NCBI GenBank assembly: GCA_964486045.1
Contig: CAZALK010000001.1
Location: forward strand, 192,001-256,000
Source of the DNA: an uncultured archaeon
GTDB taxonomy: Archaea; Asgardarchaeota; Lokiarchaeia; Sigyniarchaeales; SOKP01
DNA: 64,000 nucleotides
Reading direction: 5' to 3'
The notes under the pieces were generated by a model. That model had not been told where the DNA came from, did no database searches, and worked only from the letters and a program-made list of their open reading frames with translations. The position numbers and the translations under genes were made by a program. Below, piece after piece: positions 1,399-27,916 of the stretch (position 1 is the first letter of the stretch; each line of letters opens with the position of its first letter).

Positions 1399-2622
1399 TT
1401 AAGTTTTCATTAAAGCCTTTGCGTTAGTCTGCCACTCGCTAACTTTCTTGGGGGAAACACCACTAATTCTAGAAGATAAATTCTCTGGATCTGCTTCGAG
1501 TAAAGCACTAACCGTAGTGATACCTTCTGTTTCTAGGTTTTCTGCCGTACCTTTTCCAATACCTTTTACAATTGTTAAAGGAATTTCTGAAGACTCTCCC
1601 TCAGATTCTTCATACAATGTTTCAACCTCAAAATCCAAACCTTTTTCGTCTGGGATTTCTACTTTCTCCGTGTCTGCGACTCCTGCCGAAGTTATGAAAA
1701 ATTCGCATTCGTTTGGAGGAAGGTCAGGGGCATCAACGATAACTGCTCTACGCTTTAATGAACTGTTAGAGGAAAATCCTTTGGTTTTAAACATTACCCG
1801 AAAATGACACCCGTGTGCCACAATATTACCCCCTATAGCATCATTACCGGAGAATATGCCCATCATCTTGGTCGCAACTTGATTAGTGAGTAATACAGCA
1901 CAATTATAAGTCTCAGCGATTCGTGAAAGGCCATGAATCATGCTATTTAAGACTCCTTGCCTTACCGCAAGTTTTCCTATGCCAACATATTCAGATCTTA
2001 AAAGAGCCATTAAGGAATCGACGATAATTAAACGTACTCCACGAGTTTTACACAACATCTCTGCTTTTTGGATCATTTGAGATTGATGGTCCGAAGAATA
2101 TATCCGGGCATGGTAAATCTGAGAAAGTACCGATTTAGGATCTAACCCGAATCGTTTCGCAATCCGCTTAATTTTTTCTTTAGAGAAGGTATTTTCAGTG
2201 TCGATATAGGCAATAGAACCATCCAAGCCCCCCTCTTTTTTCAGGAGTTGACATGTCACTGAAATTGTTGAAGCGAGTGCTGTTTTCCCTGACTTAAAAG
2301 GGCCATAAACTTCTGTAAGTTTGCCTGTTTGAAATCCTCCACCTAATATTTTATTAAGCTCTGCGGAACCCGTTGTAATATACTCAACATTTTCATCTAT
2401 CTTTTCCGCTGTAGTAAACTCCGTCATCCCTAATGCGTTTCGAGCGTTCCAAATTAACTTTTTCGCAGTTTTATCACCGAGTCCATCAATATTCGCAACT
2501 ATCATACCTGGAGACATCGCCAAAGCCTCAGCGTTACTAATACCATTTTCTTGTAAAAGTTTTATCTGACGGGCATTGATACCTTTTACTTTACTTAAAT
2601 CTGCCACTTTTTGTAACATCAC
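1399..2622 (-). CDS. radA: RadA/Rad51-family recombinase paralogue with additional C-terminal HhH domain
   Basis: N-terminal HhH, FTTA polymerisation motif, ITTGS..L..ILGGG, Walker A GPFKSGKT, YIDTENTF, LIIVDS, TNQV, IGGNIVAH, then a C-terminal VKGIGKGTAENL HhH. True start may be ATG 2619 or GTG 2607 (after AGGTGA). Confidence 0.9.
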   Translation of the reverse strand: MMLQKVADLSKVKGINARQIKLLQENGISNAEALAMSPGMIVANIDGLGDKTAKKLIWNARNALGMTEFTTAEKIDENVEYITTGSAELNKILGGGFQTGKLTEVYGPFKSGKTALASTISVTCQLLKKEGGLDGSIAYIDTENTFSKEKIKRIAKRFGLDPKSVLSQIYHARIYSSDHQSQMIQKAEMLCKTRGVRLIIVDSLMALLRSEYVGIGKLAVRQGVLNSMIHGLSRIAETYNCAVLLTNQVATKMMGIFSGNDAIGGNIVAHGCHFRVMFKTKGFSSNSSLKRRAVIVDAPDLPPNECEFFITSAGVADTEKVEIPDEKGLDFEVETLYEESEGESSEIPLTIVKGIGKGTAENLETEGITTVSALLEADPENLSSRISGVSPKKVSEWQTNAKALMKT

Positions 2623-2664
2623 CTACTTTATCTAATTAGGATTAACCTTAGATTATGACCGATC

Positions 2665-2679
2665 TATATAAAGAAAAAA
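2665..2679 (-). promoter_or_regulatory. T-tract/TATA promoter motif upstream of radA paralogue
   Basis: Sense strand TTTTTTCTTTATATA. Confidence 0.7.
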
Positions 2680-2884
2680 CAGAGATTAGAAAAAAGTAAT
2701 AATGCCAAACATCAGAAAAATAAGTTCCGGGGAATGGGAAAGAAAAAGTGTATCAATAAAAATTAGTCTTATTACTCTTTTCTAACATAAATAGATAAGG
2801 ATGGTACAAGTATAAAAATAAAAAATAAATTTTTGAATTATTTAATGTATCAAGATAATGGAAATAGCAATAAATTGAATTAAC

Positions 2885-3860: not shown

Positions 3861-4583
3861 CTAGTTTGAAAAAATAAATCCACTATCGATAAGTTCGAAA
3901 TTAAGAGAGAAACTCGTATCGTTATATGCAAACTTTATTATTCTTTGGTCGGAAATGAGAGATTTTGATAGAATAATCCGTACTCCTCTTATCCTTTCAT
4001 ATAACTTAAAGAAAAAAGGTCGGGTTTGCTGTGATTTGACGTGAAAGGAAACTTCATGAATTAAGACTAAATTTATTTTTTCTCTATGACACCGAAAAAT
4101 AAGAGGATTTAACACTCTGTCATAAAAATCGTTAATTAAGTAAAATCTCTGAGTTATATCAAGAATTTGAGAATATCTAAAGCGTAGGTGATGAGAAATA
4201 TTATCTATTATAAGAAATTTTGTGTCTGGTGGAAATGAGAAGTTATTTTTAGCTAGTTTTTCTAATTGTTCAGATTGGGCTTCATAGGAAGTAGAAGGTC
4301 TACTACTAGGAGTAATGAAAAAATTCTTTGTGAGATATTTTGATTTTTCTTTATCTTTTTTAAACAATGATTCAAGTCTTTTTGTTGAGAATGACTCACT
4401 TGCTTGAACCCATACACAACTACCGTCATAAGGGATATTTGATGTAAGAAAGGTTCCAATCAAAAATAGAGAAAGAGATGACTTACCTGTTCCAGCTTTT
4501 CCCGAAATAGAAATCAATGTATTTTCTTGAAATATTTCTTTAATACCAATTAGAATCGATTCTTGGAGCGTCATCTTACTCAT
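3861..4583 (-). CDS. RadB-like/RecA-fold ATPase (recombinase paralogue lacking N-terminal domain)
   Basis: Walker A GKAGTGKS, CVWVQASESFSTKRL (cf. yIdtE.tF...Rl), Walker B LIIDNISHHLR. Confidence 0.75.
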   Translation of the reverse strand: MSKMTLQESILIGIKEIFQENTLISISGKAGTGKSSLSLFLIGTFLTSNIPYDGSCVWVQASESFSTKRLESLFKKDKEKSKYLTKNFFITPSSRPSTSYEAQSEQLEKLAKNNFSFPPDTKFLIIDNISHHLRFRYSQILDITQRFYLINDFYDRVLNPLIFRCHREKINLVLIHEVSFHVKSQQTRPFFFKLYERIRGVRIILSKSLISDQRIIKFAYNDTSFSLNFELIDSGFIFSN

Positions 4584-5678: not shown

Positions 5679-5699
5679 TACCCTCTATTTCTTCAGCTA

Positions 5700-5716
5700 A
5701 ATATAAAGAAAAAAAA
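5700..5716 (-). promoter_or_regulatory. T-tract/TATA promoter motif, 21 nt upstream of M50 gene start
   Basis: Sense TTTTTTTTCTTTATATT. Confidence 0.7.
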
Positions 5717-5781
5717 TAAAAAGTGACTATCAGGAAAATGAGGAATGTTTCACTCTACACAAAACATTTAGTTTATAAACC

Positions 5782-5796
5782 TATATAAAGAAAAAA
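5782..5796 (-). promoter_or_regulatory. Second (tandem) T-tract/TATA motif upstream of M50 operon
   Basis: Sense TTTTTTCTTTATATA, identical to the radA copy. Confidence 0.65.
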
Positions 5797-6174
5797 TTCA
5801 TTAAACGGTTACCAAGAAAAAATTAGAATTTTTTTTGCTTGCTCTGAAGTAAGCTTATACGTTGGGCAGATATCTAAACTTAGATTACAAAATGTGAATG
5901 AAAAAATACTTCAATAAGTGCTTTAGCTGTAAATCTTAATGGGATCTTTTTGTTGATTAAGGTTTTTGTATCTACTTTCATCTCAATAGAAACCCAAATG
6001 AAAAAAGTGGTATAAAATATAAAAACCACAAATTTTACTTTATGATTAGAGCGCTTCTACTCTTCAAACTCGATCGTAAGGCAAAGGTTTAAAAGGCAAA
6101 CTCCTACCCTTTATTTTTTTAGTGAACTAAATTTTTTAGTTAAATAAAATAAAAAAAATAGTGATCAGAAAAAA

Positions 6175-11307: not shown

Positions 11308-11326
11308 CCCAACCTTAACCTCACAA

Positions 11327-11341
11327 TTTTTTCTTTATATT
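11327..11341 (+). promoter_or_regulatory. T-tract/TATA motif upstream of wHTH-hef operon
   Basis: TTTTTTCTTTATATT, 23 nt before ATG 11365 (may double as terminator of the upstream gene). Confidence 0.6.
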
Positions 11342-11364
11342 TATTTAGTTTTACTAAATCAGAA

Positions 11365-15481: not shown

Positions 15482-18022
15482 TTATTTGTTTTTCTTTTTA
15501 TCAGGTCCTTTAATAATTTTCTTACACAAATTTATCCCCAAGCCTGTTTTTTGGTTTAACATATAGGGATTTTCTTTCCTTACTTGAGAGGCAGTATGGT
15601 ATCCTGCTTTATACAATATTCTTGCTCGTACTCTAGCGACATCATTAAGCCGTAAGACCAAATCAAACAATTCCTCGCGAATGCCGTAATGAATCCGAAT
15701 TTTGAGAGTTTCTGCCATCTCTGCTACCTTAGTAAGCTTATCGTATAAATCTATTCCATGTGTACTTAAACTGCTGGCAATAATACCAATAAAATTAATT
15801 ATTCGCTCCAAATTGTCTCGTACTCCAAATAAATCACCAGCCATAATTTTATAATGATCTAATATTTGGTCAATAGGTTCCTCATCTGTCCACTCGAGGA
15901 TTGGTTCCACCATTTTATAGTCTCTTACTCTAAATTCAGATTTCAAGACTTCATAAGCTTCTTTAATGAGATCCTGGAACGTGGATATTTTGGCATTTTC
16001 TAGTTTATAACGGATCATAACCCCCGAAGACGGATAAAGGTAGAGCCTTATAATTAGCTTACCAAACTGGGAGCATTTAATCTTTCCATCACCAGTACTC
16101 ATAATAAGCCCCTTCTCGAACAGATAGTTAATGACATACTGGTTCTTAATACTTTGAGGGATAACATCTTCCATGCATTTTTGCACGTTAGAATCGGGAA
16201 AAGCGATAAGATACAGTAAAAATGCGGTAATATGGTCACAAAATTCAAATGCAAAATCAGTATCACCTGAAAAATTATCAGACACACCATTTTTAAACCC
16301 GCACGAGCATTGGATTCCCATATCAATATCGAACTGACAAGAATGTACTCCAAAACTAGTCTTAATATATCCCCCCAAAGTAGAGTTGGTACATTTAGTA
16401 AGTTTTATTTGATGGCGTTGAGATTTTAACTCATTTACTTTTTTCGGATTGGAATGCAATTTTAAAATGTTAACTGGAGTAATTTCTTTAATCATCAGTA
16501 ATTGTTCAATAGGAATCTTTTGCTCTTTCATATTATGGGAAATTGTGTACCAGAAATAGGTCTTCTCGAAAAATTCTTTAAGTTGTTCAATAGTTATCCT
16601 TTTACTCTCGAAAATTCTTAGTAACACCTGCTCTTTTAAGATATTAATTTTGTTTAACCGTGATTGTAAATTACTATATTTTGGGATCATCGCACTTCTC
16701 ATATGAGGGGATTTGAAATAATTATCCTCAACCCACATTTTCTCATCGATGTTTTTGACTAAAATTATCCCATATCCAACTGAATCTAAGCCTGGTCTTC
16801 CCGCCCTTCCTAAAATTTGGAAGACTTCATTAGGGGAAAAAGCTTTAAAATATGAAAACCCATCCCCATTTTCATGATATCCCTTAAAATTTTTAATATT
16901 GTAGCCTGACGTAGTAAACTTTTTGAAATCTCGTAATATTACCACTCTTGCAGGGGTGTTAATTCCCGCGGATAATGTCGTGGTGCAGCATATTATCTTG
17001 ATGATCCGCTTCTGAAAGTTTTCTTCAATTGTCTTTCTTTCTCGAGCCACCAGTCCTGCATGATGAAAGGCGATTCCCGAACTTAATATTTTAATTAGGT
17101 CTCGATTTCCGCCTTTGATAGAAGTTAATCGTTTCGATAAGGCCTTACAAACTTTCAGCTCTGCCTCTTCCATAAATTTAATAACAACATCTTTAAGATT
17201 TTGAGCGGTTTGTTGTGCTGTTTTTCGCTTATTTAGGAAGATTAGAATTTGTCCTTTATCTTTTAATATGGTTTTGACAATACGTTTGAGAGTAGAGTCT
17301 TTATTCTGGGAAACTTCAATTTTATAGTGTAGAGGTACCGGTCGTTGCTCAGATTTAATTAAAGTAGTCTGATTTCCAAGTGAAGAGAGCCACGAATTGA
17401 AAAACTCAGGGTTCGCGATGGTTGCACTTAAACCAATAATTTGAGGATTATGGAGGAATTCATTTAACCGAACAATAAGAGACTCAAGTCGCGGACCTCG
17501 ATCCGATTCTCCAATGATATGAATTTCATCAATAATTATGGTTGAGATCTCATAAACCCATTCTTTATCATAAAAATTGCGAATGATTGAGTCCATTTTT
17601 TCATAAGTAGTCACAATTATATCTGCTTTTTCCAGCTTCTTATCATCTACATCGTGATCACCTATGGAAAGCTCAACTTTAAGGTCATATCGGGCATAGC
17701 TTTTCTTAAAGTGGAAATATTTCTCGGTCGCTAATGCTTTGAAGGGTACTAGATAGATTGATTTACCGAACTTTTGGAAAATATTATGGATGGCACATAC
17801 TTCTCCTATGAGAGTCTTGCCACTACCAGAGGGAGCACATACTAAAAATGATTTGCGAAAGAATAGGCCTTTTTTAATTGCTTCTTTTTGAATTTCTCGA
17901 AGTTCAAAAATCCTATTTTCGAACAACACCCGTAAAATTCGTTTATCAGGAATAAACTTAGTAATTTCAGCATCCTCTAATGAATCTTCTGTGATTTTCC
18001 CAGTGAAATTTGTAAGACTCAT
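15482..18022 (-). CDS. Hel308/Hjm (Ski2-like) DNA helicase paralogue with inserted SWIM zinc finger
   Basis: LREIQ, APSGSGKT, TTYEK, DEIH, LSAT, FHHAGL, LGRAGRPG, C-terminal RVRAR HhH; CSC...CDH insert. Start reassigned to ATG 18022 because the promoter motif at 18049-18068 lies in the ORF-track extension. Confidence 0.88.
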   Translation of the reverse strand: MSLTNFTGKITEDSLEDAEITKFIPDKRILRVLFENRIFELREIQKEAIKKGLFFRKSFLVCAPSGSGKTLIGEVCAIHNIFQKFGKSIYLVPFKALATEKYFHFKKSYARYDLKVELSIGDHDVDDKKLEKADIIVTTYEKMDSIIRNFYDKEWVYEISTIIIDEIHIIGESDRGPRLESLIVRLNEFLHNPQIIGLSATIANPEFFNSWLSSLGNQTTLIKSEQRPVPLHYKIEVSQNKDSTLKRIVKTILKDKGQILIFLNKRKTAQQTAQNLKDVVIKFMEEAELKVCKALSKRLTSIKGGNRDLIKILSSGIAFHHAGLVARERKTIEENFQKRIIKIICCTTTLSAGINTPARVVILRDFKKFTTSGYNIKNFKGYHENGDGFSYFKAFSPNEVFQILGRAGRPGLDSVGYGIILVKNIDEKMWVEDNYFKSPHMRSAMIPKYSNLQSRLNKINILKEQVLLRIFESKRITIEQLKEFFEKTYFWYTISHNMKEQKIPIEQLLMIKEITPVNILKLHSNPKKVNELKSQRHQIKLTKCTNSTLGGYIKTSFGVHSCQFDIDMGIQCSCGFKNGVSDNFSGDTDFAFEFCDHITAFLLYLIAFPDSNVQKCMEDVIPQSIKNQYVINYLFEKGLIMSTGDGKIKCSQFGKLIIRLYLYPSSGVMIRYKLENAKISTFQDLIKEAYEVLKSEFRVRDYKMVEPILEWTDEEPIDQILDHYKIMAGDLFGVRDNLERIINFIGIIASSLSTHGIDLYDKLTKVAEMAETLKIRIHYGIREELFDLVLRLNDVARVRARILYKAGYHTASQVRKENPYMLNQKTGLGINLCKKIIKGPDKKKNK

Positions 18023-18048
18023 AGTACCAATACTATTTGGACTGGAAT

Positions 18049-18068
18049 AATTTAAAGGAAAAAAAAAA
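18049..18068 (-). promoter_or_regulatory. T-tract/TATA motif upstream of Hel308-like gene
   Basis: Sense T10-CC-TTTAAATT, 26 nt before ATG 18022. Confidence 0.6.
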
Positions 18069-18404
18069 GTTAAAACAAACTGATTATTGTTGGAAAGGTA
18101 TTTCACTAATTTATTTAGAAATATTCTCAAAAATAAGTAAAAATTTATGTCAAAGAATAATAAACATAATATAACACATAGGAAAAAAGCCCTATCTCCC
18201 TAAAAATTTAAACTCTTTCACTTTTTACTCGGGTAATACCTTAATTTAACCCAATTACACTAAAAATAACCAATATATTTTCTACCAGAATTTTAAAGCG
18301 TGTTTTTCATAATACCAAGGTTTATTAAATTTAATACCATCTCTTATATGCTTGAATAGAGATAATTCAAAGTTCCAAGTATAAAATTATAATTTGGTGA
18401 AAGT

Positions 18405-18551
18405 ATGTCTAATAGAAATTATGGTAATAGAGAGATGCATAAAGCCACTTGTGCCGACTGCGGAAACGAGTGCGAAGTTCCATTTAAGCCTACGGAAGGC
18501 AGACCTGTTTATTGTCGAGACTGTTTTAGAAAGCAGAGAGATAAAAGATAA
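18405..18551 (+). CDS. CxxC-x17-CxxC small zinc-finger protein (48 aa, not in ORF track)
   Basis: MSNRNYGNREMHKATCADCGNECEVPFKPTEGRPVYCRDCFRKQRDKR; SD GGTGA upstream. Confidence 0.9.
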   Translation: MSNRNYGNREMHKATCADCGNECEVPFKPTEGRPVYCRDCFRKQRDKR

Positions 18552-19349: not shown

Positions 19350-19580
19350 TCAGGAATTCTTTTTGGCTTCAGGAATTAACACGATAAAATTACTACCTTT
19401 AGAATGGTCCCCTTTAATTCGGTCTTCAACCCATATCTTTCCCTTGTACAACTTAATGATTTCAGTAATAAACGACAATCCGATCCCCATACCCTTCTCT
19501 CCTTTCAGTTCTTTATACCCCTCTAGGAAGATTTTCTCTTTTTTGAAGCCTTGAACTCCTATCCCATTATCACTGAATTT
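19350..19580 (-). pseudogene. Remnant of a sensor histidine kinase (HATPase_c C-terminus)
   Basis: FSDNGIGV...IF...GMGIGLS...IIKLYKGKIWVEDRIKGDHSKGSNFIVLIP shows G1/F/G2 boxes; no intact upstream frame. Confidence 0.8.
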
Positions 19581-20002
19581 TTGATCGTATAAAAGTCAAG
19601 GAAAATACCATCCTGATAAACCCCGTTGAAAATTTTTTAGTATGCTATGTCATTAAGGGTCAGTCGTATCCCGCCTTGCAGAAATTAGCACGCTTTACAG
19701 AAGCTTTAAGAGAAAATTCGGAAATCTGGCAGGCCCTCAATAAATCGGTAAAAACTAGTGAAATATTAGAACTCGATAAGCCCCCCGCGCTCAAAACAGT
19801 GATTGATGAGATTTTTACTCAATGAATTTTCAGGCTTAGAGAAATACTTAAAAACATCTTTTTATCTTTTCCTTCTTTTTTGGTGAGAGATAATTCTTGT
19901 TTTAAAATTAATTAATCACAATCACTACAAAAGGCTTTTAATGAAAGCATGGGATCAAAGTTGAAACGATTAACTTAAAAGAAAATTAATCTTCAATTCT
20001 AA

Positions 20003-20018
20003 TTTTTTCTTTATAAAT
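20003..20018 (+). promoter_or_regulatory. T-tract/TATA motif upstream of five-gene membrane operon
   Basis: TTTTTTCTTTATAAAT, 26 nt before ATG 20045. Confidence 0.7.
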
Positions 20019-20044
20019 ACTCATTTTTTATGTCATAGATAAAG

Positions 20045-22183
20045 ATGACACTTGAAAGTGAGTTAAAGCGTAAAAAAGAAAGTTTGAAGTTCTTCTACCA
20101 AATGGCCCAAGAAGCGTTAGATGCTGATGACTTAGAACAAGCAATCGAAATATCAGCAAAAGGTCTCGAAGAAGCAGAATTGAAAGAACAAGATGAATGG
20201 GCGGAAAAATTTGAAGAATTAAATTCTCAAGTAGAGTCAGCTAAAGAAGCCACCTCTTTAAATACTACCATAGTACGAGAAGATATTACAGTGATTAAAG
20301 GTGTTGGAAAATCTGTTGCAGAAAAACTAAAGGGTGGTGGATTTCATTCTGTTAGAGTAATTGCTGAGGCAACTATCACCCAACTTACTAATATACCGGG
20401 AATTGGTCAGAAAACAGCCGAGAAAATTAATGAGGGGGCGAATGAGCTAATCTCAAGAAAAAATCTTAATGATTTTCCCGAGGATAGTGATATTGAAAGA
20501 TCACAACCAGTGGATGAAATCCCCAGAGCCGAGGAGAATGATTTAGAGGAGAATAATAGAGAAGAACCGGAGCCTGTAAAAAACTCCACTATAGTAGAAA
20601 GCGTTGTAGATAATATTGAACAGGAAAACACACAAAAGGCTTCATTTCCGTGGTTTGAGGAGAAACTCAAAATTAAGAGATCAGCAGTCTCTCAGAAAAC
20701 AAAGGTGAAATCTAATAAAAAAGTTGTATATGAAGAAGTTGTTGATGATTTAACTTCAGACTCTGAATACGATATAGATAATGGTAATATAGAGGATGAA
20801 AACACAATAGGGGTTGAAGATAATACTATTGAAAGTACATTCCACAAAAATCCAGTAGCACAAGATACTATTAACCTTAATGATAGAACTCAAGGTGTTT
20901 TTCGAGAAACAAGCGTTCAGGAACATTCTTCTCCGCAATTAACTCAGAAGATTACACCCCAATCAGAAGAACAGTTACTGTCTTCCGAGAAAAAAGAGAA
21001 TATTGAAAATATCATTCATTCATTACGGGAATCGGGATTTCATATTATAGAGAAAGTAAGGTTATTGAAGGATTTATCAATGAATAGTGATCTCATTGCT
21101 TTGAAGATTATTCACGCGAATGAATTTTTAGATTTGGTGCTAATTCTTCCCATCAAGGTGAGTAACTTGAAAGGAGAAATTAAAATTTCAAATAAACAAG
21201 TAAAATACATCCCGCTTAACGATACATTCAATAAAAATGGCTCTTCCTTCCGGTTGGAATTAAACTCAACTATTAATGACCTCGGAGAAGTGTATAGTGC
21301 GATGCGAGATGACATAATAAGTGAAGGAAAATTGCTTTCTTACCTTAGAAAACAGCTTAAAGTAGACATCTCTATTGAAAAATCCATGACCAAAAAAAAT
21401 CTATTCTTTCGTGCTGGTCCACTTCAATATAAAATATTCATTGAACCACTCTTAGTGTGCAATAATAACGTTGGGTTTCTAGAGAAGATGCTTCCTTTCC
21501 CCTATCTTAAAGATATAAACCTTCATATCATCAATTCCCCCCAATTACCAAACTTTCTTACTTATCTGGAGGAGAAGTTTACACTTCTTGAGGAACATTC
21601 CAATCATAAAAATTCATTAATTTCTTATGAAGATTCCTTTAATCAGTTCTTACAAACTGGGAAGAAATTATCAGTTCCTTTTATAGCATTCGGAATAACA
21701 TTACTAATGTTGGTTTTGTTTCAATTAGTTAACTTGCTGGAATTGGTGGTTAACATTGGATATGCCTTACTTGGAGTCTATTCGACCTCACTAATTTACT
21801 TCTACATCAAATTTTTTAAGACGAAACTTGAAATTCAGACCGAATTTGGAATTCCGCATCATCAAAAAAAGGTAGAAATAGATGATCCAGGGTTAATTAT
21901 AATTAGTGAGGCCTTCTCTGCTGACCTAATGGAGCAATTTGTGTTTGAATGTTTAGGAAAAAACCCAGACTCGTCCTTTATCCAGAAAATTGAGGAGGCA
22001 CACATCAAAGAGAGGTTAAATAACAAAGCAAAAGCAATAGAAATCAAGAATGAGAATTTATTTGAGAAACAAGACGAACTAACCGGTGAAGAAGGACTAG
22101 AATACAACAAAGAGGAAACCGAGTTCCAATTAGAAGAAGACGAGGAGATTTTCCAAAAATATGGATCGTTTTTAGAGGATTGA
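20045..22183 (+). CDS. Membrane-anchored helix-hairpin-helix DNA-binding protein
   Basis: N-terminal helical bundle, tandem HhH (IKGVGKSVAEKL / IPGIGQKTAEKI), acidic linker, alpha/beta domain, two TM helices near the C-terminus. Confidence 0.75.
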   Translation: MTLESELKRKKESLKFFYQMAQEALDADDLEQAIEISAKGLEEAELKEQDEWAEKFEELNSQVESAKEATSLNTTIVREDITVIKGVGKSVAEKLKGGGFHSVRVIAEATITQLTNIPGIGQKTAEKINEGANELISRKNLNDFPEDSDIERSQPVDEIPRAEENDLEENNREEPEPVKNSTIVESVVDNIEQENTQKASFPWFEEKLKIKRSAVSQKTKVKSNKKVVYEEVVDDLTSDSEYDIDNGNIEDENTIGVEDNTIESTFHKNPVAQDTINLNDRTQGVFRETSVQEHSSPQLTQKITPQSEEQLLSSEKKENIENIIHSLRESGFHIIEKVRLLKDLSMNSDLIALKIIHANEFLDLVLILPIKVSNLKGEIKISNKQVKYIPLNDTFNKNGSSFRLELNSTINDLGEVYSAMRDDIISEGKLLSYLRKQLKVDISIEKSMTKKNLFFRAGPLQYKIFIEPLLVCNNNVGFLEKMLPFPYLKDINLHIINSPQLPNFLTYLEEKFTLLEEHSNHKNSLISYEDSFNQFLQTGKKLSVPFIAFGITLLMLVLFQLVNLLELVVNIGYALLGVYSTSLIYFYIKFFKTKLEIQTEFGIPHHQKKVEIDDPGLIIISEAFSADLMEQFVFECLGKNPDSSFIQKIEEAHIKERLNNKAKAIEIKNENLFEKQDELTGEEGLEYNKEETEFQLEEDEEIFQKYGSFLED

Positions 22184-22184
22184 A

Positions 22185-22844
22185 ATGAAAGTATCACTGC
22201 CTATCTGTTTTAAAATTGTATTTCTTGCAGGGATAACTCTCCTCTTTGTTACTTTATTTGTAGATTGGTATACCTTTCAAGTGTTTGATGATGATATATT
22301 AGTAGCCTCTTGGGACTATAATCTTTTTTTCGAGTGGACAACTGAATTCCCTTCAGGTATTATAGTAAACGAAAGTTATCGTCCTGGAAATTTAAACCTC
22401 CCGCTTGCTCTTCATTTTTTATTTGTTGGAGTCACAATTTTCACTGTTTATACTGTTTTATTGAAAGACCTTGAACATTCTGAGAATTTGATTGCACTTA
22501 AAAGTTATTCACTCGGATTTCTATTTTTACTTGCGTTAGTTCTATTCTATATTGTTATTTTTCCTGTAGCGTATTTATTTCCCAACAATTTATATTTTCC
22601 CTCATTGGTAGATAACAACATTGACTTGGCTATGAAACTTTCTTACGCAATTAGTTATGGGTACGTGTTACAGCTTGTCGGTTTTCTATTAATCTTTCCT
22701 TATTCATTACACTATTATCTTACGATATCTAATTTTGAGAAACAGGAGAATACTGATGAGAAAAGAATTGCGTCTTATATCGAGAACGTGCAAGAAACAA
22801 TCGACCTTGATAAATATATCGCAGAAGAGGAATCGTTATCATGA
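22185..22844 (+). CDS. Four-TM membrane protein (tetraspan/claudin-like topology)
   Basis: TM1 ending in DW, beta-rich first loop, TM2-TM3, TM4 preceded by SYGY; acidic C-terminal tail. Confidence 0.65.
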   Translation: MKVSLPICFKIVFLAGITLLFVTLFVDWYTFQVFDDDILVASWDYNLFFEWTTEFPSGIIVNESYRPGNLNLPLALHFLFVGVTIFTVYTVLLKDLEHSENLIALKSYSLGFLFLLALVLFYIVIFPVAYLFPNNLYFPSLVDNNIDLAMKLSYAISYGYVLQLVGFLLIFPYSLHYYLTISNFEKQENTDEKRIASYIENVQETIDLDKYIAEEESLS

Positions 22845-23704
22845 ATAATAACATATTGGATTTAAAATTACAATCGTTAATACACGCTTGTAAAGCTTCT
22901 GGTAATTTCAAAAAATTATCGGTTGTAGGGTTTATTCTTACCAGCAATATCGTTGACGAAATTTCGATAAAGTTAGGCATGCGCCCTCGTCGTAAAAAAG
23001 AGCAAGAAAAACTGTTTGAGTATCTTTCTTTAGTAAATGACGTGTTTGAGAGAAATCTGCAAATTTGCATATTTCATTCGGATCTGGTTAATACGTTAAA
23101 AGAGGTTGAGCTCCTTTTTCTGAAAACGCGGGGTGACCTTCCCTATGAGTATATAAGCCAATTAATAACCTTGTATTATGAACTAAGGAAAATCGAAATT
23201 CCGAATATTCATAAAGGAATGGCAGGCGAGGATTTTTTTGGTAATCCAGGTATGGGTACCCTAAATTTCTTCACTCGACGGGCGAAAGCAAGACAAAAAA
23301 AAGAAAACAAGTTTAAGCCTATCCTCCGCCATACAATAACTGAAAAAGAAAAACAGATCCAAGTCAAGCTAAACAAAAAATTAACCCAATCTGATTTAGA
23401 GATGGCAATCCATCTAAGAAAGATTAAAAGTAGCTTGGATAAAAAAGGGAAGCAAAAGATAATTCTCCAAGGCTCCCTTAAAGACAGTATTATGTATGAA
23501 AGGTCTCAAAGCAAATTAATTGGGTACGTACTTTTAGGTGTGGCGTTACTTACACTGTTATTTGGAAGTGTAGTTCTTGTTGAGACGTTTCTCCTTCCTG
23601 CCACCATGGAGCCACTAAACCATGTAGTATTAATATCATTTGCAGTTGCGTTTTTATTTGTCCTTATTTATCGCAAATATTCTAAAAGAGGAAATATAGC
23701 ATGA
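22841..23704 (+). CDS. Hypothetical membrane protein (helical N-terminus, 2 C-terminal TM)
   Basis: ATGA overlaps with both neighbours; two hydrophobic helices at the C-terminus. Confidence 0.7.
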   Translation: MNNNILDLKLQSLIHACKASGNFKKLSVVGFILTSNIVDEISIKLGMRPRRKKEQEKLFEYLSLVNDVFERNLQICIFHSDLVNTLKEVELLFLKTRGDLPYEYISQLITLYYELRKIEIPNIHKGMAGEDFFGNPGMGTLNFFTRRAKARQKKENKFKPILRHTITEKEKQIQVKLNKKLTQSDLEMAIHLRKIKSSLDKKGKQKIILQGSLKDSIMYERSQSKLIGYVLLGVALLTLLFGSVVLVETFLLPATMEPLNHVVLISFAVAFLFVLIYRKYSKRGNIA

Positions 23705-26700
23705 GAGCTCAATATCATAAAAAAGTGGAAACAACACCTCGTAAGAATACTCGGGAGGTAATAATCGAGGAAAAGGATGGTACTCCTTCACCCAAAGAAA
23801 TACCCACAATATGGCGTGTAAATCCTTCCTATACTCATGCCAATAATACAATATCTATCGTGAGAATTATATTAATAGTCGCAATGGGCACCGTATTTAT
23901 TATTGCTACTTATTTATTGGATTTAAATTTGCAGATCTCATTAATTATGGGAGCATGCATTATTGCAGGGTTTGTTTTTGTGTTTTATGATTATATCGAC
24001 GTAGTAAACAATCTTTTTCGCAAGAGAATAATAATCGATCCAATGGAAAATATTATCTCCTTTTGGGAAAAAAACGACCACACAACTATCTTTTTTACCA
24101 ATAAGAAAGATTTAATTCATAACGGAGTTCAGATCTTTCGAGTCGAAGAGATTCCAGAAAATATTCATGCATCGATAAATTTGTTTTTAAAATCTCTAAG
24201 TGAATATAAAAACATGATAAGCTTTACCTATCAAATAGTCCAAACTCCTCAGGTCTATCTGAAAAGGACCGATAGAAACGTAATAGTTAGGGCTACTGAA
24301 GCTCGACGTACAAGTATCTATTTCTGTGTAAGCTATGCTGTCAAAGGAATATTAACTCAACATAAACTAACCCACTTAAAACAAAGGATGCGTTATGTGG
24401 GGGATGTTTTGCGAAATAATTTCACCGGTAATTTTCATCATTTTAAAATAACCCTTCTTTCGGGGGGTAATTTACTCAATGCGTTACGGACCTATTTTTT
24501 TAAGATTCCCCCCCAAGAAGATAATGCTGAACATGAGACTAAAGATAGACGATCCTTTTCCGTTAAATCTCTATTAAAAGCAGTATTTATGTGTTTCTTA
24601 ATTATATACTTGGATTACACCTTGATTCCTTTTGCAATTCCTCTTCTTTATATCGTTCTTATTAATTTCTTAATGATTGTCCTCATTATTTATCTTTGGT
24701 GGCGACAGCTCCTTTTCATTGTAAGAAAAAGACCATTTCCCAAAAATAAATTTGTTTATATTTATCCATTTCGCGGAACCGTTCTTTTTCGTTTTAGAGG
24801 TTACTCTGATACAGTTTTTATGCATGTCGAAAATAAACTTCTGATAGGTCTGAAGATGTTTAACCTTGCATTTAGTTTTCCTCCGGCATATAGCAGATCA
24901 GACAAATTCATTCAAGCTATTATGAATAAGAAAGTATCGTTTGCCTATACCTGTATGAACACTCCCCTTTCTTTTGCCGCATTCTATAAAGATGGAGCAA
25001 AATACCTCAACCAGAAGACAGAAGATAATCTATTTAACACCCGTTTCAGAATTCAAACTAAAATTGAAGCTCTTAATTGGTTGTCAATGAGATCAGGGAT
25101 GTGGCAAACAATTTTAACTATGTCTGTGCATGAATATGAGCTAACCGATTCAATAAGTAAATCAGAAATCGCTAAACTAGCAGAAAAGCTTGAAGAAAAA
25201 GCAGAAGTTCTACGTAGTGCATTTAATATGAATTTTTTTAATTTTGAGCTAATTCGCTTGAGAAGAAGTAAGTTAATTTCTGGAGTGTTATGTGAAATAT
25301 TAAAGACCAAAGATTATTCTTTTTATGGTTCCGGTCTTAATTACCTTCTATTCCAAGGAAAAGCGCTTTTAAACCTTGTCGAAATTGTGGGTGAACTTAA
25401 GAAAGGGATCGAAACAAAAATCGCGGCGGAGTTTAACACCCCTCTTCATTTAGAGAATCATATAACTTTAGGACATACCATTAATACTGAAGTACTGGAA
25501 GAAGAACTTCCTTTTGGATTTACCGAAGACCAAGCACGAAGGTTGATTATTGTAAACGGACTACTTTCCAGTAGAGAACTATTTGCCATCAAAACAGTTT
25601 CTGAATTAGTTAAAAAGAAAATTTCTTCACTTATTTTTGACTTTCGGGGAAATTGGTCGGTCTTAATTGAACGATTTAAAGGAACACCCCTTGAAAAAGA
25701 CTTTCTCCACTTTAAGCTGGGAAGTGCCTTTACCCTTGATCCTCTAAAATCAGATATACCTTATGACACCGATAACATAGGTTTCTTAAACTATATGTTT
25801 GATGCCTATTCTCTGGCGTTTCGGAAAGATCAAAAAACGGTTGAGATGATACGAAACACCATCATACGTAATCCTAATATGGATACTTCTTCATTAAACT
25901 TGGGTTTAATCAATCAGAATACATGGGAGAAAAGCCCTGGAAGTGATGCCCTTCTTGTGTTGTTCAGCGATTTTACTGAGCAAGACTTACCTTATTTACA
26001 CCTCTCAACATCAGCCCAAACAGGAGGGGTAACCTTTAAAGATTTTATTAACAGTGAAAAAACAGTCATTATTGATCTTTCCATAACTAATGATTATCGA
26101 AAACAAATATTCTTCGTATTTTTAATCCTGTCAAAGATCATCCACTATCTTAACTCCTCAGGAGAATATCAAGAAAAAGTAGTTGTTATTCCTCATACTG
26201 ATATTTTCTTCGATAGTATTTTTATCGATAAATTTACTAATTATGGGAAAATAAATAAGTTCTTAGATCCACTTATCGAAAAAGGATTTGGGTTAATATT
26301 CTCGGCAAACCAAACCCATTATTTGCACAACAACCTTGTTTCCTTTTTCAATAATATAATAGCGTTTAATACCAAAGACTCTCGTGATATAGCTGCAATC
26401 AGCAATGTTATGGGACTTCAAGAATTACAAGGAATTGGGTATTACTCAAAATCCAGGAATCAAACCTATCAGTTTAAATATCTAATGGCAATGAAAAATA
26501 ATGAGGCCGTCGTTAAACGAGAAGATAATTACCAACCCTTTCCAGTGCAATTGGAATGGAAAGATATTAAAAACAGTCCTATCATGGAAGAAAATGAGTT
26601 ATTCGATTATATGAAATCTCAAGGCTATGACCTTAGAGACACGGAAAAGAAAATACGGGAGCAATCTCGTAAAACCATCTTTCAAAAAGATTTAGGAATC

Positions 26701-27492
26701 TACTCTGGATTTATTGCGGAGGCAAAACAGTTTTTAGATGCGTTAAGAACTGTCGAACAGGTTGGGAATTTATATGAAAAACGAGTAAAAAAAGAATTAA
26801 AAACTTATATTTTCCCTAAAGCTTCAAAAATTTATAAAGATAAAGCAGAAATCAAGAAATGCCGTGATGAGATTTTTAGTATATTGATTAAGTTTGGTTA
26901 TCTAGTAGAAGATCATCCAACTAGAGCTAGTGGCTCAGAATCAGTAAGAACTTCTTACTCTGTCGGGGATCATTATGATAAAGCTTTAGACGACGAATTT
27001 GAAACTAAACAGCCCTATAGAATTGAGTCTTTAGATCTTGAAGCAGTCACCCCCCAATCTCCTGACTTTGTTGAAGCTCAAAAAAGAACCTATATTATTA
27101 GGCAGAAAAGTCTTAAAAAAGCGCTTGCTCGGGAGTTTAGTAATTTTCTCTTCGAGCTATTTAACGTCTATGAATTTATTACTCATAAGCAATATAAAAA
27201 TGCGTTAAAAGTCGAACATAACCTTGTACGCAGGTTCCTTATAGAAGTGTATACACATTACTTTAATGCCAATTATTTAATAACCACTAAAGATCTTACT
27301 GAATTTATATCCCATCTCGTAGCTGAGACAGAGATACCTTTTTCAGAGGAAGAGCTCATAAGTTACTTAGAACGATACCAAGTTATCGATTTTGACCATT
27401 CTGATATACAATCACTTGCAAACGAGATTTATGAGTTTATTTCAGTATTTTTTGATAAAATTCAGTTATTCATGTATAAAGATGAGGAGTGA
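23701..27492 (+). CDS. Large membrane-bound VirB4/HerA/FtsK-fold protein with degenerate ATPase motifs
   Basis: Two 2TM+alpha/beta modules, then LGH...PFG..RRLIIVNGLLSSRE (Walker A position), LIFDFRGNW, FTLDPL, TVIIDLS, VVVIPHTD (Walker B position), KGFGLIFSANQ. Confidence 0.7.
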   Translation: MRAQYHKKVETTPRKNTREVIIEEKDGTPSPKEIPTIWRVNPSYTHANNTISIVRIILIVAMGTVFIIATYLLDLNLQISLIMGACIIAGFVFVFYDYIDVVNNLFRKRIIIDPMENIISFWEKNDHTTIFFTNKKDLIHNGVQIFRVEEIPENIHASINLFLKSLSEYKNMISFTYQIVQTPQVYLKRTDRNVIVRATEARRTSIYFCVSYAVKGILTQHKLTHLKQRMRYVGDVLRNNFTGNFHHFKITLLSGGNLLNALRTYFFKIPPQEDNAEHETKDRRSFSVKSLLKAVFMCFLIIYLDYTLIPFAIPLLYIVLINFLMIVLIIYLWWRQLLFIVRKRPFPKNKFVYIYPFRGTVLFRFRGYSDTVFMHVENKLLIGLKMFNLAFSFPPAYSRSDKFIQAIMNKKVSFAYTCMNTPLSFAAFYKDGAKYLNQKTEDNLFNTRFRIQTKIEALNWLSMRSGMWQTILTMSVHEYELTDSISKSEIAKLAEKLEEKAEVLRSAFNMNFFNFELIRLRRSKLISGVLCEILKTKDYSFYGSGLNYLLFQGKALLNLVEIVGELKKGIETKIAAEFNTPLHLENHITLGHTINTEVLEEELPFGFTEDQARRLIIVNGLLSSRELFAIKTVSELVKKKISSLIFDFRGNWSVLIERFKGTPLEKDFLHFKLGSAFTLDPLKSDIPYDTDNIGFLNYMFDAYSLAFRKDQKTVEMIRNTIIRNPNMDTSSLNLGLINQNTWEKSPGSDALLVLFSDFTEQDLPYLHLSTSAQTGGVTFKDFINSEKTVIIDLSITNDYRKQIFFVFLILSKIIHYLNSSGEYQEKVVVIPHTDIFFDSIFIDKFTNYGKINKFLDPLIEKGFGLIFSANQTHYLHNNLVSFFNNIIAFNTKDSRDIAAISNVMGLQELQGIGYYSKSRNQTYQFKYLMAMKNNEAVVKREDNYQPFPVQLEWKDIKNSPIMEENELFDYMKSQGYDLRDTEKKIREQSRKTIFQKDLGIYSGFIAEAKQFLDALRTVEQVGNLYEKRVKKELKTYIFPKASKIYKDKAEIKKCRDEIFSILIKFGYLVEDHPTRASGSESVRTSYSVGDHYDKALDDEFETKQPYRIESLDLEAVTPQSPDFVEAQKRTYIIRQKSLKKALAREFSNFLFELFNVYEFITHKQYKNALKVEHNLVRRFLIEVYTHYFNANYLITTKDLTEFISHLVAETEIPFSEEELISYLERYQVIDFDHSDIQSLANEIYEFISVFFDKIQLFMYKDEE

Positions 27493-27848
27493 TAATGAGC
27501 GTTAGCAAAAACCAAAAAACTCTGTTGATAGAAATGGTTGAGGAGATCCTGCTTAACGAAGGTGAGCTTGAAACTTTGAAACTTCTTATTAATGATCTAA
27601 GCACGGGAAAAATTGATTCAAAACAACTAAAAATCGCAATCATTAAGAGTAGAGCAAATGCTTTAGAACGAATTATTGATATATTCCCTTTTTATCATAA
27701 AAGAATACTAAACCAAAAAGAAATCGATAATTTTGCTACAGATAATAATACTCCTCCTGAAGCACTCCTAGAATTAGAAGAAAAAAACAAGTTTCTCGAA
27801 GAGATCGGAATCAGGATAAATAAAATTGTAAGTAATTTGAGCACTTAA
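27489..27848 (+). CDS. Small helical hypothetical protein, last gene of membrane operon
   Basis: GTGA overlap with upstream gene; SD GAGGAG. Confidence 0.65.
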   Translation: MIMSVSKNQKTLLIEMVEEILLNEGELETLKLLINDLSTGKIDSKQLKIAIIKSRANALERIIDIFPFYHKRILNQKEIDNFATDNNTPPEALLELEEKNKFLEEIGIRINKIVSNLST

Positions 27849-27878
27849 AATCCTATTTTTTCTGCGTTTTATGGTTTC

Positions 27879-27916
27879 TATATAAAGGAAAAATTTCGAG
27901 CTTTTTTGTTTATATA
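27879..27916. promoter_or_regulatory. Back-to-back pair of T-tract/TATA motifs
   Basis: Minus-strand TTTTTCCTTTATATA (27879-27893) and plus-strand TTTTTTGTTTATATA (27902-27916, 21 nt before ATG 27938). Confidence 0.6.

Follow-up and report, generated by a model that had tools for sequence, protein, structure and literature searches.

Dedicated machines for DNA exchange in archaea are known mainly from Crenarchaeota, namely Ced and Ted. Ced, found in Sulfolobales, and Ted, found in Thermoproteales, are domesticated type IV secretion systems (T4SSs) (PMC9905601, PMC11868833); CedB is regarded as the ATPase powering DNA import, and CedA and TedA are related to each other at the HHpred level only (PMC9905601), and the VirB4 N-terminal domain is reported to be matched in one part by the N-terminal domain of CedB and in another by that of CedD (PMC11868833). 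The Ced/Ted paper makes no mention of Asgard archaea, and in a literature search we found no paper on a VirB4-like or Ced-like system in this group. Here we describe a five-gene operon from an uncultured Asgard archaeon of the order Sigyniarchaeales, carried on a 64,000-nucleotide stretch of DNA (contig CAZALK010000001.1, positions 192,001 to 256,000, assembly GCA_964486045.1) that we analysed as a whole and call the window.

We tentatively propose, and put at somewhat below an even chance, that the operon encodes a domesticated, T4SS-derived, Ced/Ted-like nucleic-acid conduit in which a VirB4-like protein, the product of gene 4, would be a non-catalytic platform. VirB4 (TrwK in R388) is the ATPase that conjugation and type IV secretion systems have at the inner membrane, and it drives bacterial DNA-transfer machines. 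The tie to T4SSs and to Ced and Ted is made because of the fold evidence for gene 4, and the tie to nucleic acids because of a helix-hairpin-helix (HhH) domain, NYN domain fusions and a neighbourhood of helicase and recombinase genes. Asgard archaea are the closest prokaryotic relatives of eukaryotes, and how genes flow among them matters for models of eukaryogenesis; the operon is a concrete candidate for an Asgard DNA-exchange machine.

The fold and nucleotide site of the gene 4 protein

The gene 4 protein (P0004) has no sequence match in Pfam, NCBIfam or PDB, and none of the Pfam models CagE_TrbE_VirB, P-loop_TraG and VirB4_TrbE_N matches it. Its relatives, more than 110 of them full-length at about 1260 aa, all come from Asgard metagenome-assembled genomes (MAGs) and are proteins without an assigned name. 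As an exhaustive profile search against 1.84 billion cluster representatives gathered only 278 proteins, the family is, by its sequences, a narrow one.

Two AlphaFold models of gene 4 (md4cdff50f53f and md381ef687fbd), each built from a 43-sequence alignment, are confident (mean pLDDT 80.4 and 81.7; pTM 0.81 for the second), and were compared with the VirB4 structures of R388 TrwK (PDB 7o42, 7o41, 8rtd) and of Thermoanaerobacter (4ag5). Residues 113-573 superpose on the N-terminal domain of TrwK/VirB4 (7o42_A) with Z 25.5 and a root-mean-square deviation (rmsd) of 4.2 A over 331 residues, and the runner-up fold for this half in an exhaustive comparison with 48,161 chains reached Z 9.3. Furthermore, all 14 Foldseek matches of the N-terminal half below E 1e-3 were VirB4 chains, and the ten nearest clusters in the ESM Atlas all belong to the VirB4 family, VirB3-VirB4 fusions among them. 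The ATPase-like domain that follows resembles VirB4 (4ag5_B, Z 24.7, rmsd 3.8, 329 aligned), and scores against other folds were Z 24.4 for DndH-C, 23.8 for HerA and 22.0 for TrwB; its best Foldseek matches were TrwK/VirB4 and HerA. Because the N-terminal half is the discriminating part, the models identify gene 4 as a VirB4-family protein by fold in both domains, and not merely as a HerA-like one. The sequence-only reading of this locus had called the large protein VirB4/HerA-like and named Foldseek as a check; the comparison revealed structural similarity to a translocase component, with both the VirB4-specific N-terminal domain and the ATPase fold matching.

The hexameric HerA translocases, which include HerA-NurA and the Sir2-HerA and DUF4297-HerA defence complexes, share the ATPase-fold core with gene 4 (Z 20-24), and an active HerA-like protein accompanies a second paralogue clade described below. 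They differ from gene 4 in that its N-terminal part is of the VirB4 type, that Pfam DUF87 does not match it, and that it is membrane-embedded and has no active site. In the exhaustive search no HerA chain was found among the 50 best for the N-terminal model.

Gene 4 shares with VirB4/TrwK a two-part architecture, in which a VirB4-specific pair of alpha/beta domains is followed by an FtsK/HerA-type ATPase fold, and it shares with VirB3-VirB4 fusions a transmembrane (TM) hairpin ahead of the N-terminal domain. Unlike VirB4/TrwK, it carries a second TM hairpin between the two N-terminal halves, and these halves are sequence-homologous repeats. The N-terminal half is a tandem duplication of a unit made of a TM hairpin and an alpha/beta domain: the two modules are homologous (hhalign probability 98.8%, E 4.5e-17, 217 columns), one hairpin stands before each half, and the two alpha/beta domains jointly superpose on the N-terminal domain of TrwK/VirB4. 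Ced divides this VirB4 domain between two proteins, CedB and CedD; here its two halves are separate repeats, each with a TM hairpin of its own. The tandem repeat bears on the origin of the VirB4 N-terminal domain and on the relation of CedB/CedD to VirB3-VirB4.

Gene 4 further differs from VirB4/TrwK in what follows the ATPase-like domain, an extension of about 280 aa made up of a helix-helix-helix-hairpin unit (residues ~1026-1102), a helical bundle (residues 1138-1259) and, between them, a disordered linker. In the model, the helix-helix-helix-hairpin unit may be a winged helix, an assignment of low confidence; weak winged-helix Pfam matches occur in distant homologues only (P0233, 520-aa protein of locus L034). 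Also in contrast to VirB4/TrwK, the Pfam VirB4 models miss gene 4, and VirB6, VirB8 and VirB10 partners were not found.

The nucleotide site of gene 4 is degenerate. The Walker A remnant has the family consensus NGxxxxR[E/D], with Arg at the Lys position in 96 of the 99 scored relatives (Lys in one) and Glu or Asp at the Ser/Thr position in 88 of the 99. A canonical GxxxxGK[ST] P-loop was found nowhere in any of 113 relatives, and the remote subfamilies too are without the Walker A lysine. The Walker B remnant has the family form hhhhPxxD: the Asp position is taken by an invariant Pro, and an acidic residue follows three positions further on. Gene 4 and its relatives thus differ from VirB4/TrwK in having neither the Walker A Lys/Thr nor the Walker B Asp-Glu, and resemble it in the structural motifs hhhFDxxG, hhIDLS and GhGhhhhxxQ, which are retained in order (here FDFxG, IIDLS and GFGLIFSANQ).

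As the replacement residues are themselves conserved, the alignment indicates selection on the site for a role other than hydrolysis. Since Walker A and Walker B are degenerate in every relative, gene 4 cannot, to judge by these motifs, be a conventional motor and is best described as a “motor-dead” VirB4, which may still bind nucleotide. The translocase interpretation first offered for the large protein thus keeps its VirB4 fold and loses its conventional motor. A catalytic site replaced across more than 100 relatives and yet under selection is unusual for the T4SS world, and it raises the question of the role of a motor-less VirB4 ring.

The partner proteins and their predicted topology

Hydropathy gives 2, 4, 2, 4 and 0 membrane helices for genes 1 to 5, in agreement with the counts of the sequence-only reading for the first four. 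Gene 1 is a single-copy gene in the genome, and its orthologues head the operon in 21 loci. The HhH domain that had been noticed in its product is real, as the HHH_5 match shows, and the closest relatives of this domain are the DNA-binding N-terminal domains of RadA/Rad51, which the profile of the gene 1 family matched in PDB (1pzn, E 3.5e-9). A hidden P-loop in gene 1 was rejected, the GVGKS at residues 87-91 belonging to the HhH hairpin. The HhH is followed by an acidic linker of about 180 residues and by a central domain in which, across the orthologue alignment, D349 is near-invariant and P369 invariant; this domain has no PDB or Pfam sequence match, and nothing usable came of a feature search in the ESM Atlas with the C-terminal part of gene 1. 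The C-terminal tail, K-Y-S/G-S-F-L-E-D directly before the stop, is aligned in 18 of 18 orthologues, and its conservation suggests that KYSSFLED is probably a docking peptide.

Because K/R-rich flanks stand on both sides of the gene 1 TM hairpin, the termini and the HhH domain are predicted to be cytoplasmic under the positive-inside rule. This bears on the comparison with bacterial competence systems (the HhH DNA receptor ComEA, the channel ComEC and the DEAD-box helicase motor ComFA). They have a functional triad in common with the operon, in that an HhH protein anchored in the membrane goes together with a multi-TM assembly and with a helicase of superfamily 2 encoded nearby. There is no homology beyond a generic HhH (comEA models score 14.7-17.3 bits against cut-offs of 53-152, the NCBIfam comEA model 14.7 against 152), the ComEA HhH is external, behind an N-terminal anchor, whereas that of gene 1 lies N-terminal to the TM hairpin on the predicted cytoplasmic side, and no ComEC-like domain is present in the operon. 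A ComEA-type external DNA receptor, one of the comparisons first suggested for this locus, is thus not what gene 1 resembles.

Gene 2 encodes four TM helices with an aromatic-rich outer loop; its outer loops are conserved (W51 and P67 invariant), and it ends in a conserved acidic amphipathic stretch, DLDKYIAEEE (22770-22841), which looks like a docking peptide from its sequence. Gene 3 has a helical cytoplasmic part of about 220 aa and a C-terminal TM hairpin, and its family yields only sub-threshold DUF2207_C matches, in 10 of 19 members. The gene 5 product is small, helical and soluble, and it is found with the VirB4-like gene in both paralogue types: by BLAST it stands beside the large gene in 14 of the 21 operon loci and in L050, a locus of the second paralogue type. 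The fifth protein is 303 aa long in L036 (605-1513, minus strand) and L052 (7438-8346, minus strand).

In searches of Pfam, NCBIfam and PDB, genes 2, 3 and 5 and their family profiles have no known-family match, and PADLOC and PHROG models match none of the five proteins, which bears out the earlier view that no named system fits by sequence. In a complex prediction of gene 2, gene 3 and the membrane part of gene 4, the control in which chain 1 was replaced scored higher, and the result is no evidence on binding in either direction.

The soluble parts of genes 1, 3 and 4 are predicted from their sequences to be cytoplasmic, with only two gene 2 loops facing outward. This topology would suit a membrane-anchored nucleic-acid tether or repair hub, in which a dead VirB4 ring and its TM partners only keep incoming or chromosomal DNA membrane-bound via the HhH arm and recruit a helicase, recombinase or nuclease, and nothing crosses the membrane. 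Such a hub would explain why all large domains, the HhH included, are predicted to be cytoplasmic, why there is hardly any extracellular mass, why the catalytic motifs of gene 4 are lost and why no channel or pilus protein is recognised, and the long acidic tether and conserved C-terminal docking tail suit a scaffold. To our knowledge, however, VirB4-fold proteins occur only in transport machines; furthermore, twelve TM helices per protomer are many for a mere anchor, and the conserved outer loops of gene 2, with their invariant residues, suggest a function at the outer face. We consider a hub of this kind unlikely.

A Zc3h12a-like NYN domain is inserted between the HhH and central domains in two gene 1 orthologues, P0314 and P0310, both in the same operon (Pfam on record; PDB ZC3H12C, E 7e-5). 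In L042, the gene 5 orthologue is fused to an NYN-like domain related to that of gene 1 (pairwise E 3e-6). The longer fifth proteins of L036 and L052 have an extra C-terminal domain that differs from this NYN-like one.

The gain or retention of HhH and NYN domains on two different subunits, together with helicase and recombinase genes as neighbours, argues against a VirB4-scaffolded machine for another cargo (protein secretion, a surface filament or a membrane protrusion), in which these domains would be accessory or regulatory. Many T4SSs do secrete proteins, and pilus assembly is another process driven by VirB4 (PMC12624023, PMC12857230); the HhH is lost in some orthologues, and a pilin-like nature of the TM hairpins in genes 1 and 3 is conceivable. 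In neither the operon nor the 1.9-kb gap upstream of it was a candidate cargo, signal-bearing protein or pilin gene seen, however, and we regard this explanation as distinctly improbable.

Conservation, neighbourhood and the proposed conduit

The sequence-only reading had looked to relatives for a conserved gene order, and the order HhH, 4-TM, 2-TM and VirB4-like gene is indeed intact in 21 loci of other genomes, at 22-47% protein identity. The arrangement is far beyond chance and the genes are co-inherited. Strong matches are nearly confined to one GTDB family, and the system is not pan-Asgard. In a GTDB-based search of 301 genomes of the phylum, strong matches were found in 54 of the 68 genomes of the window's own family; a second family had one such genome among 21, only weak or split relatives occur in four further families, and the two largest other families sampled have none (0/76 and 0/28). 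A pan-Asgard distribution, to which the submitters' MAG labels (Thor-, Hermod-, Hod- and Hel-archaeota) pointed, was rejected by this search.

The divergent upstream neighbour is a gene for a Hel308/Ski2-like helicase in 18 of the 21 operon loci (56-76% identity), and a GNAT/DUF998 membrane protein is encoded downstream in 14 of the 21. Two helicases are encoded in the window, and genes for a RadA paralogue and a RadB-like P-loop protein lie 17 kb upstream of the operon. The Hel308-like protein has an insert at residues ~600-660 with a CxC...CxH pattern (IQCSCG ... FCDHITAF), and a second Hel308-like gene is present in the genome on contig C10 (38% identity over residues 65-313).

No tRNA gene lies within the window, and no integrase or relaxase family was matched among the neighbouring ORFs (open reading frames) scanned; the sequence-only reading, too, had seen no integrase or relaxase nearby. 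The base composition of the operon agrees with its surroundings. A location in a mobile element was rejected on account of the conserved flanks, the uniform composition and the missing tRNA, integrase and relaxase genes, and because the flanks are conserved and mobile-element genes were not found, the operon is a chromosomal, domesticated system. Across the genome, PF03135 found no match, PF19044 one sub-threshold match elsewhere and PF04610 none; by these Pfam models the genome is without a canonical VirB4 or VirB6.

The locus resembles Ced and Ted in being an archaeal operon on the chromosome, in encoding a membrane-anchored VirB4-type protein together with small two-TM proteins and a polytopic one, and in having a neighbourhood link to recombination and helicase genes. 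In particular, two small TM-hairpin proteins and a 4-TM protein are coupled in translation to the VirB4-like gene, a parallel to CedA/CedA1/CedA2/CedB (PMC9905601). The differences are that gene 4, unlike CedB, has no catalytic motifs; that CedA and TedA have 6-7 TM helices and gene 2 has 4; that neither Ced nor Ted has a counterpart of the HhH protein, of the NYN fusions or of the small helical protein; and that no sequence similarity to any component was found, in a taxon, Asgard, that differs too. Of the Ced/T4SS-like architecture first suggested, the VirB4-like protein with its coupled TM proteins is upheld, and a VirB6/CedA-like channel or VirB2/CedA1-like pilin was not identified.

In the conduit that we favour, the VirB4-like protein would form a ring-shaped, non-catalytic assembly platform under the membrane, and genes 1-3 would add 8 TM helices per protomer for the membrane part. 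On the cytoplasmic side, the RadA-type HhH, tethered by the long acidic linker, would capture nucleic acid or pass it on, DNA being the most likely kind, and in some lineages the NYN nuclease domain would process it. Because such a platform would be unable to burn ATP in the usual way, another factor is proposed to drive movement. Here ComFA offers a model in which a helicase, and not the ring, pulls DNA; by this analogy the Hel308-like neighbour would be the best candidate, and RadA loading another.

Several observations weigh against a conduit. No ATPase activity is expected of gene 4, whereas VirB4 and CedB are the ATPases of their systems. The predicted exposure on the outside amounts to two gene 2 loops of ~37 and ~22 residues. 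Sequence searches recognised no VirB6/CedA-like protein with 5-7 TM helices in the operon and no VirB2/CedA1-like pilin, with no small hairpin ORF in the operon or in the upstream gap; by hydropathy, the partners of gene 4 have TM hairpins only within the larger genes 1 and 3. The HhH is degenerate in 2 of the 18 aligned gene 1 orthologues (L006 and L046). As most NYN domains are RNases, RNA is a possible substrate. Conservation of the helicase far exceeds that of the operon proteins, and it may simply be a neighbour with an unrelated housekeeping role. Finally, 14 of the 68 genomes of the own family are without gene 4, and because several of them are nearly complete (97-99%), gene 4 is not essential.

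A bolder form of the conduit, which we think rather unlikely, would have Asgard archaea of the Loki type exchange chromosomal DNA with a domesticated conjugation-like apparatus of their own. VirB4 would be a passive, nucleotide-insensitive docking ring, a Hel308-type helicase would thread the DNA, and a RadA-derived, membrane-tethered HhH arm would hand it directly to RadA; the duplicated layout of gene 4 would then be the missing link between the split CedB/CedD and the bacterial VirB3-VirB4.

Paralogues, gene layout and local features

The genome has a second gene 4 copy, 41% identical, on contig C14 (47254-51060; locus L009 8219-12115, minus strand), which is split by one TAG into ORFs of 645 and 648 aa and falls in a well-supported separate clade of the tree. 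In five of the six clade members (five genomes), the gene adjoins or lies near an active HerA-like ATPase of the P0119 type, with intact Walker A (GLSGVGKS) and Walker B. The P0119 family has 8 paralogues in the genome, for instance at C1:261769-263685, ~6 kb past the end of the window. P0119 matches the PADLOC defence model mad8 (E 1e-13), and by this match its paralogues may mark defence islands; the operon under study has no such HerA-like partner. After the P0119-type ATPase there often comes a protein of 1300-1600 aa without annotation.

It could be asked from these data whether the operon is itself a defence or exclusion system, acting as an entry barrier or abortive-infection sensor, or a decaying remnant of an ancient conjugative element in slow loss. 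The patchy presence even in the own family, the paralogue interrupted by a stop codon and the mad8-type partners of the second clade would fit such an origin. Against it, the five ORFs are intact with many residues invariant at 30-45% identity, which indicates selection and not decay; the flanks are stable chromosomal genes across genera, the composition is that of the surroundings, and the defence and phage models already mentioned match none of the five proteins. We judge this explanation highly improbable.

A distant split form of the system occurs in another family, in the closed 3.6-Mb genome that carries locus L034. There, radA is followed in order by genes for an 888-aa M28-like membrane protein, a 150-aa 4-TM protein, a 282-aa protein made of a TM segment and a VirB4 N-terminal-like part, and a 520-aa ATPase-like protein with a weak winged-helix match, so that the split homologue stands three genes downstream of radA. 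Homologues were found in 6 of 6 sampled genomes of that genus.

The five ORFs of the operon, all on the plus strand and flanked by a 5′ TATA-type promoter and a 3′ oligo-T tract, have the lengths, coordinates and junctions that had been read from the sequence at first (Table 1). The junctions are, in order, a 1-nt gap between genes 1 and 2 and then ATGA, ATGA and GTGA overlaps, and a GAGG-type ribosome-binding site lies 7-12 nt 5′ of each internal start. Gene 5 may alternatively begin at the ATG at 27495.

Table 1. Features of the operon, its surroundings and a distant homologous locus; positions are those of the window except where a locus is named.
Feature	Position	Strand	Details
Gene 1 (P0001)	20045-22183	+	712 aa; coiled N-terminus, HhH, acidic linker, central domain, TM hairpin, C-terminal tail
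Gene 2 (P0002)	22185-22844	+	219 aa
Gene 3 (P0003)	22841-23704	+	287 aa
Gene 4 (P0004)	23701-27492	+	1263 aa
Gene 5 (P0005)	27489-27848	+	119 aa
(HhH)2 domain, gene 1	20285-20440	+	residues 81-132; Pfam HHH_5 E 1.8e-12
Central domain, gene 1	20987-21649	+	~residues 315-535; conserved block
TM hairpin, gene 1	21671-21814	+	~residues 543-590; K/R-rich flanks on both sides; hydropathy
C-terminal tail, gene 1	22157-22180	+	KYSSFLED
Module 1, gene 4	23845-24501	+	TM hairpin (49-95) and alpha/beta domain (104-267); model md381ef687fbd
Module 2, gene 4	24562-25302	+	TM hairpin (288-332) and alpha/beta domain (351-534)
FtsK/HerA/VirB4-fold ATPase-like domain, gene 4	25420-26652	+	about residues 574-984 (580-959 matched to VirB4)
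Walker A remnant, gene 4	25555-25578	+	N-G-L-L-S-S-R-E, residues 619-626; strand-loop-helix position in model
Walker B remnant, gene 4	26179-26202	+	V-V-V-I-P-H-T-D, residues 827-834
C-terminal extension, gene 4	26776-27477	+	secondary structure of model md4cdff50f53f; low confidence
Promoter of operon	20002-20019	+	T-rich element and TATA box, ATTTTTTCTTTATAAATA; 26-43 nt before gene 1 ATG; sequence
Sites of motif TTTTTTCTTTATAT	2663-2680(-), 5698-5715(-), 5780-5797(-), 11326-11343(+), 20002-20019(+), 27877-27894(-), 29875-29892(+), 32344-32361(-)		in window
T6 tract	27856-27861	+	directly 3′ of last stop; sequence
Hel308/Ski2-like helicase	15482-18130	-	882 aa; DEAD, Helicase_C, archaeal helicase domain 4
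Downstream neighbour	27938-29845	+	635 aa; GNAT-like N-terminal part and DUF998 membrane domain; own promoter
RadA paralogue	1399-2622	-	HHH_5 in two stretches, best C-terminal (residues 349-398)
RadB-like short P-loop protein	3861-4583	-	with RadA paralogue
Distant split form of the system	L034 4223-10947		gene series

The T-tract promoter of the sequence-only reading is present, and what does not hold is that it is special to the operon, as the promoter-like motif TTTTTTCTTTATAT has 9 sites in the window against 2.7 expected. Because the motif precedes not only the gene of the RadA paralogue but also unrelated ones (a nitronate monooxygenase gene, a 203-aa ORF and the gene of an M50B-like membrane protein), it looks like a generic local promoter form and not the mark of a private recombination regulon. 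A sigma-70 promoter scan gave chance level, with a model that is irrelevant for an archaeon. The T6 tract is, by its sequence and position, likely an archaeal terminator, and the gene downstream of the operon has TATA boxes of its own.

Between helicase and operon, the 1.9-kb gap has no pilin-like ORF and holds only a small ORF and a gene fragment. The first is a 48-aa zinc-ribbon ORF of the CxxC...CxxC type (18405-18551, plus strand). The second is a 46-aa fragment (19350-19490, minus strand) that resembles the C-terminal end of a histidine-kinase ATPase domain and is probably a remnant.

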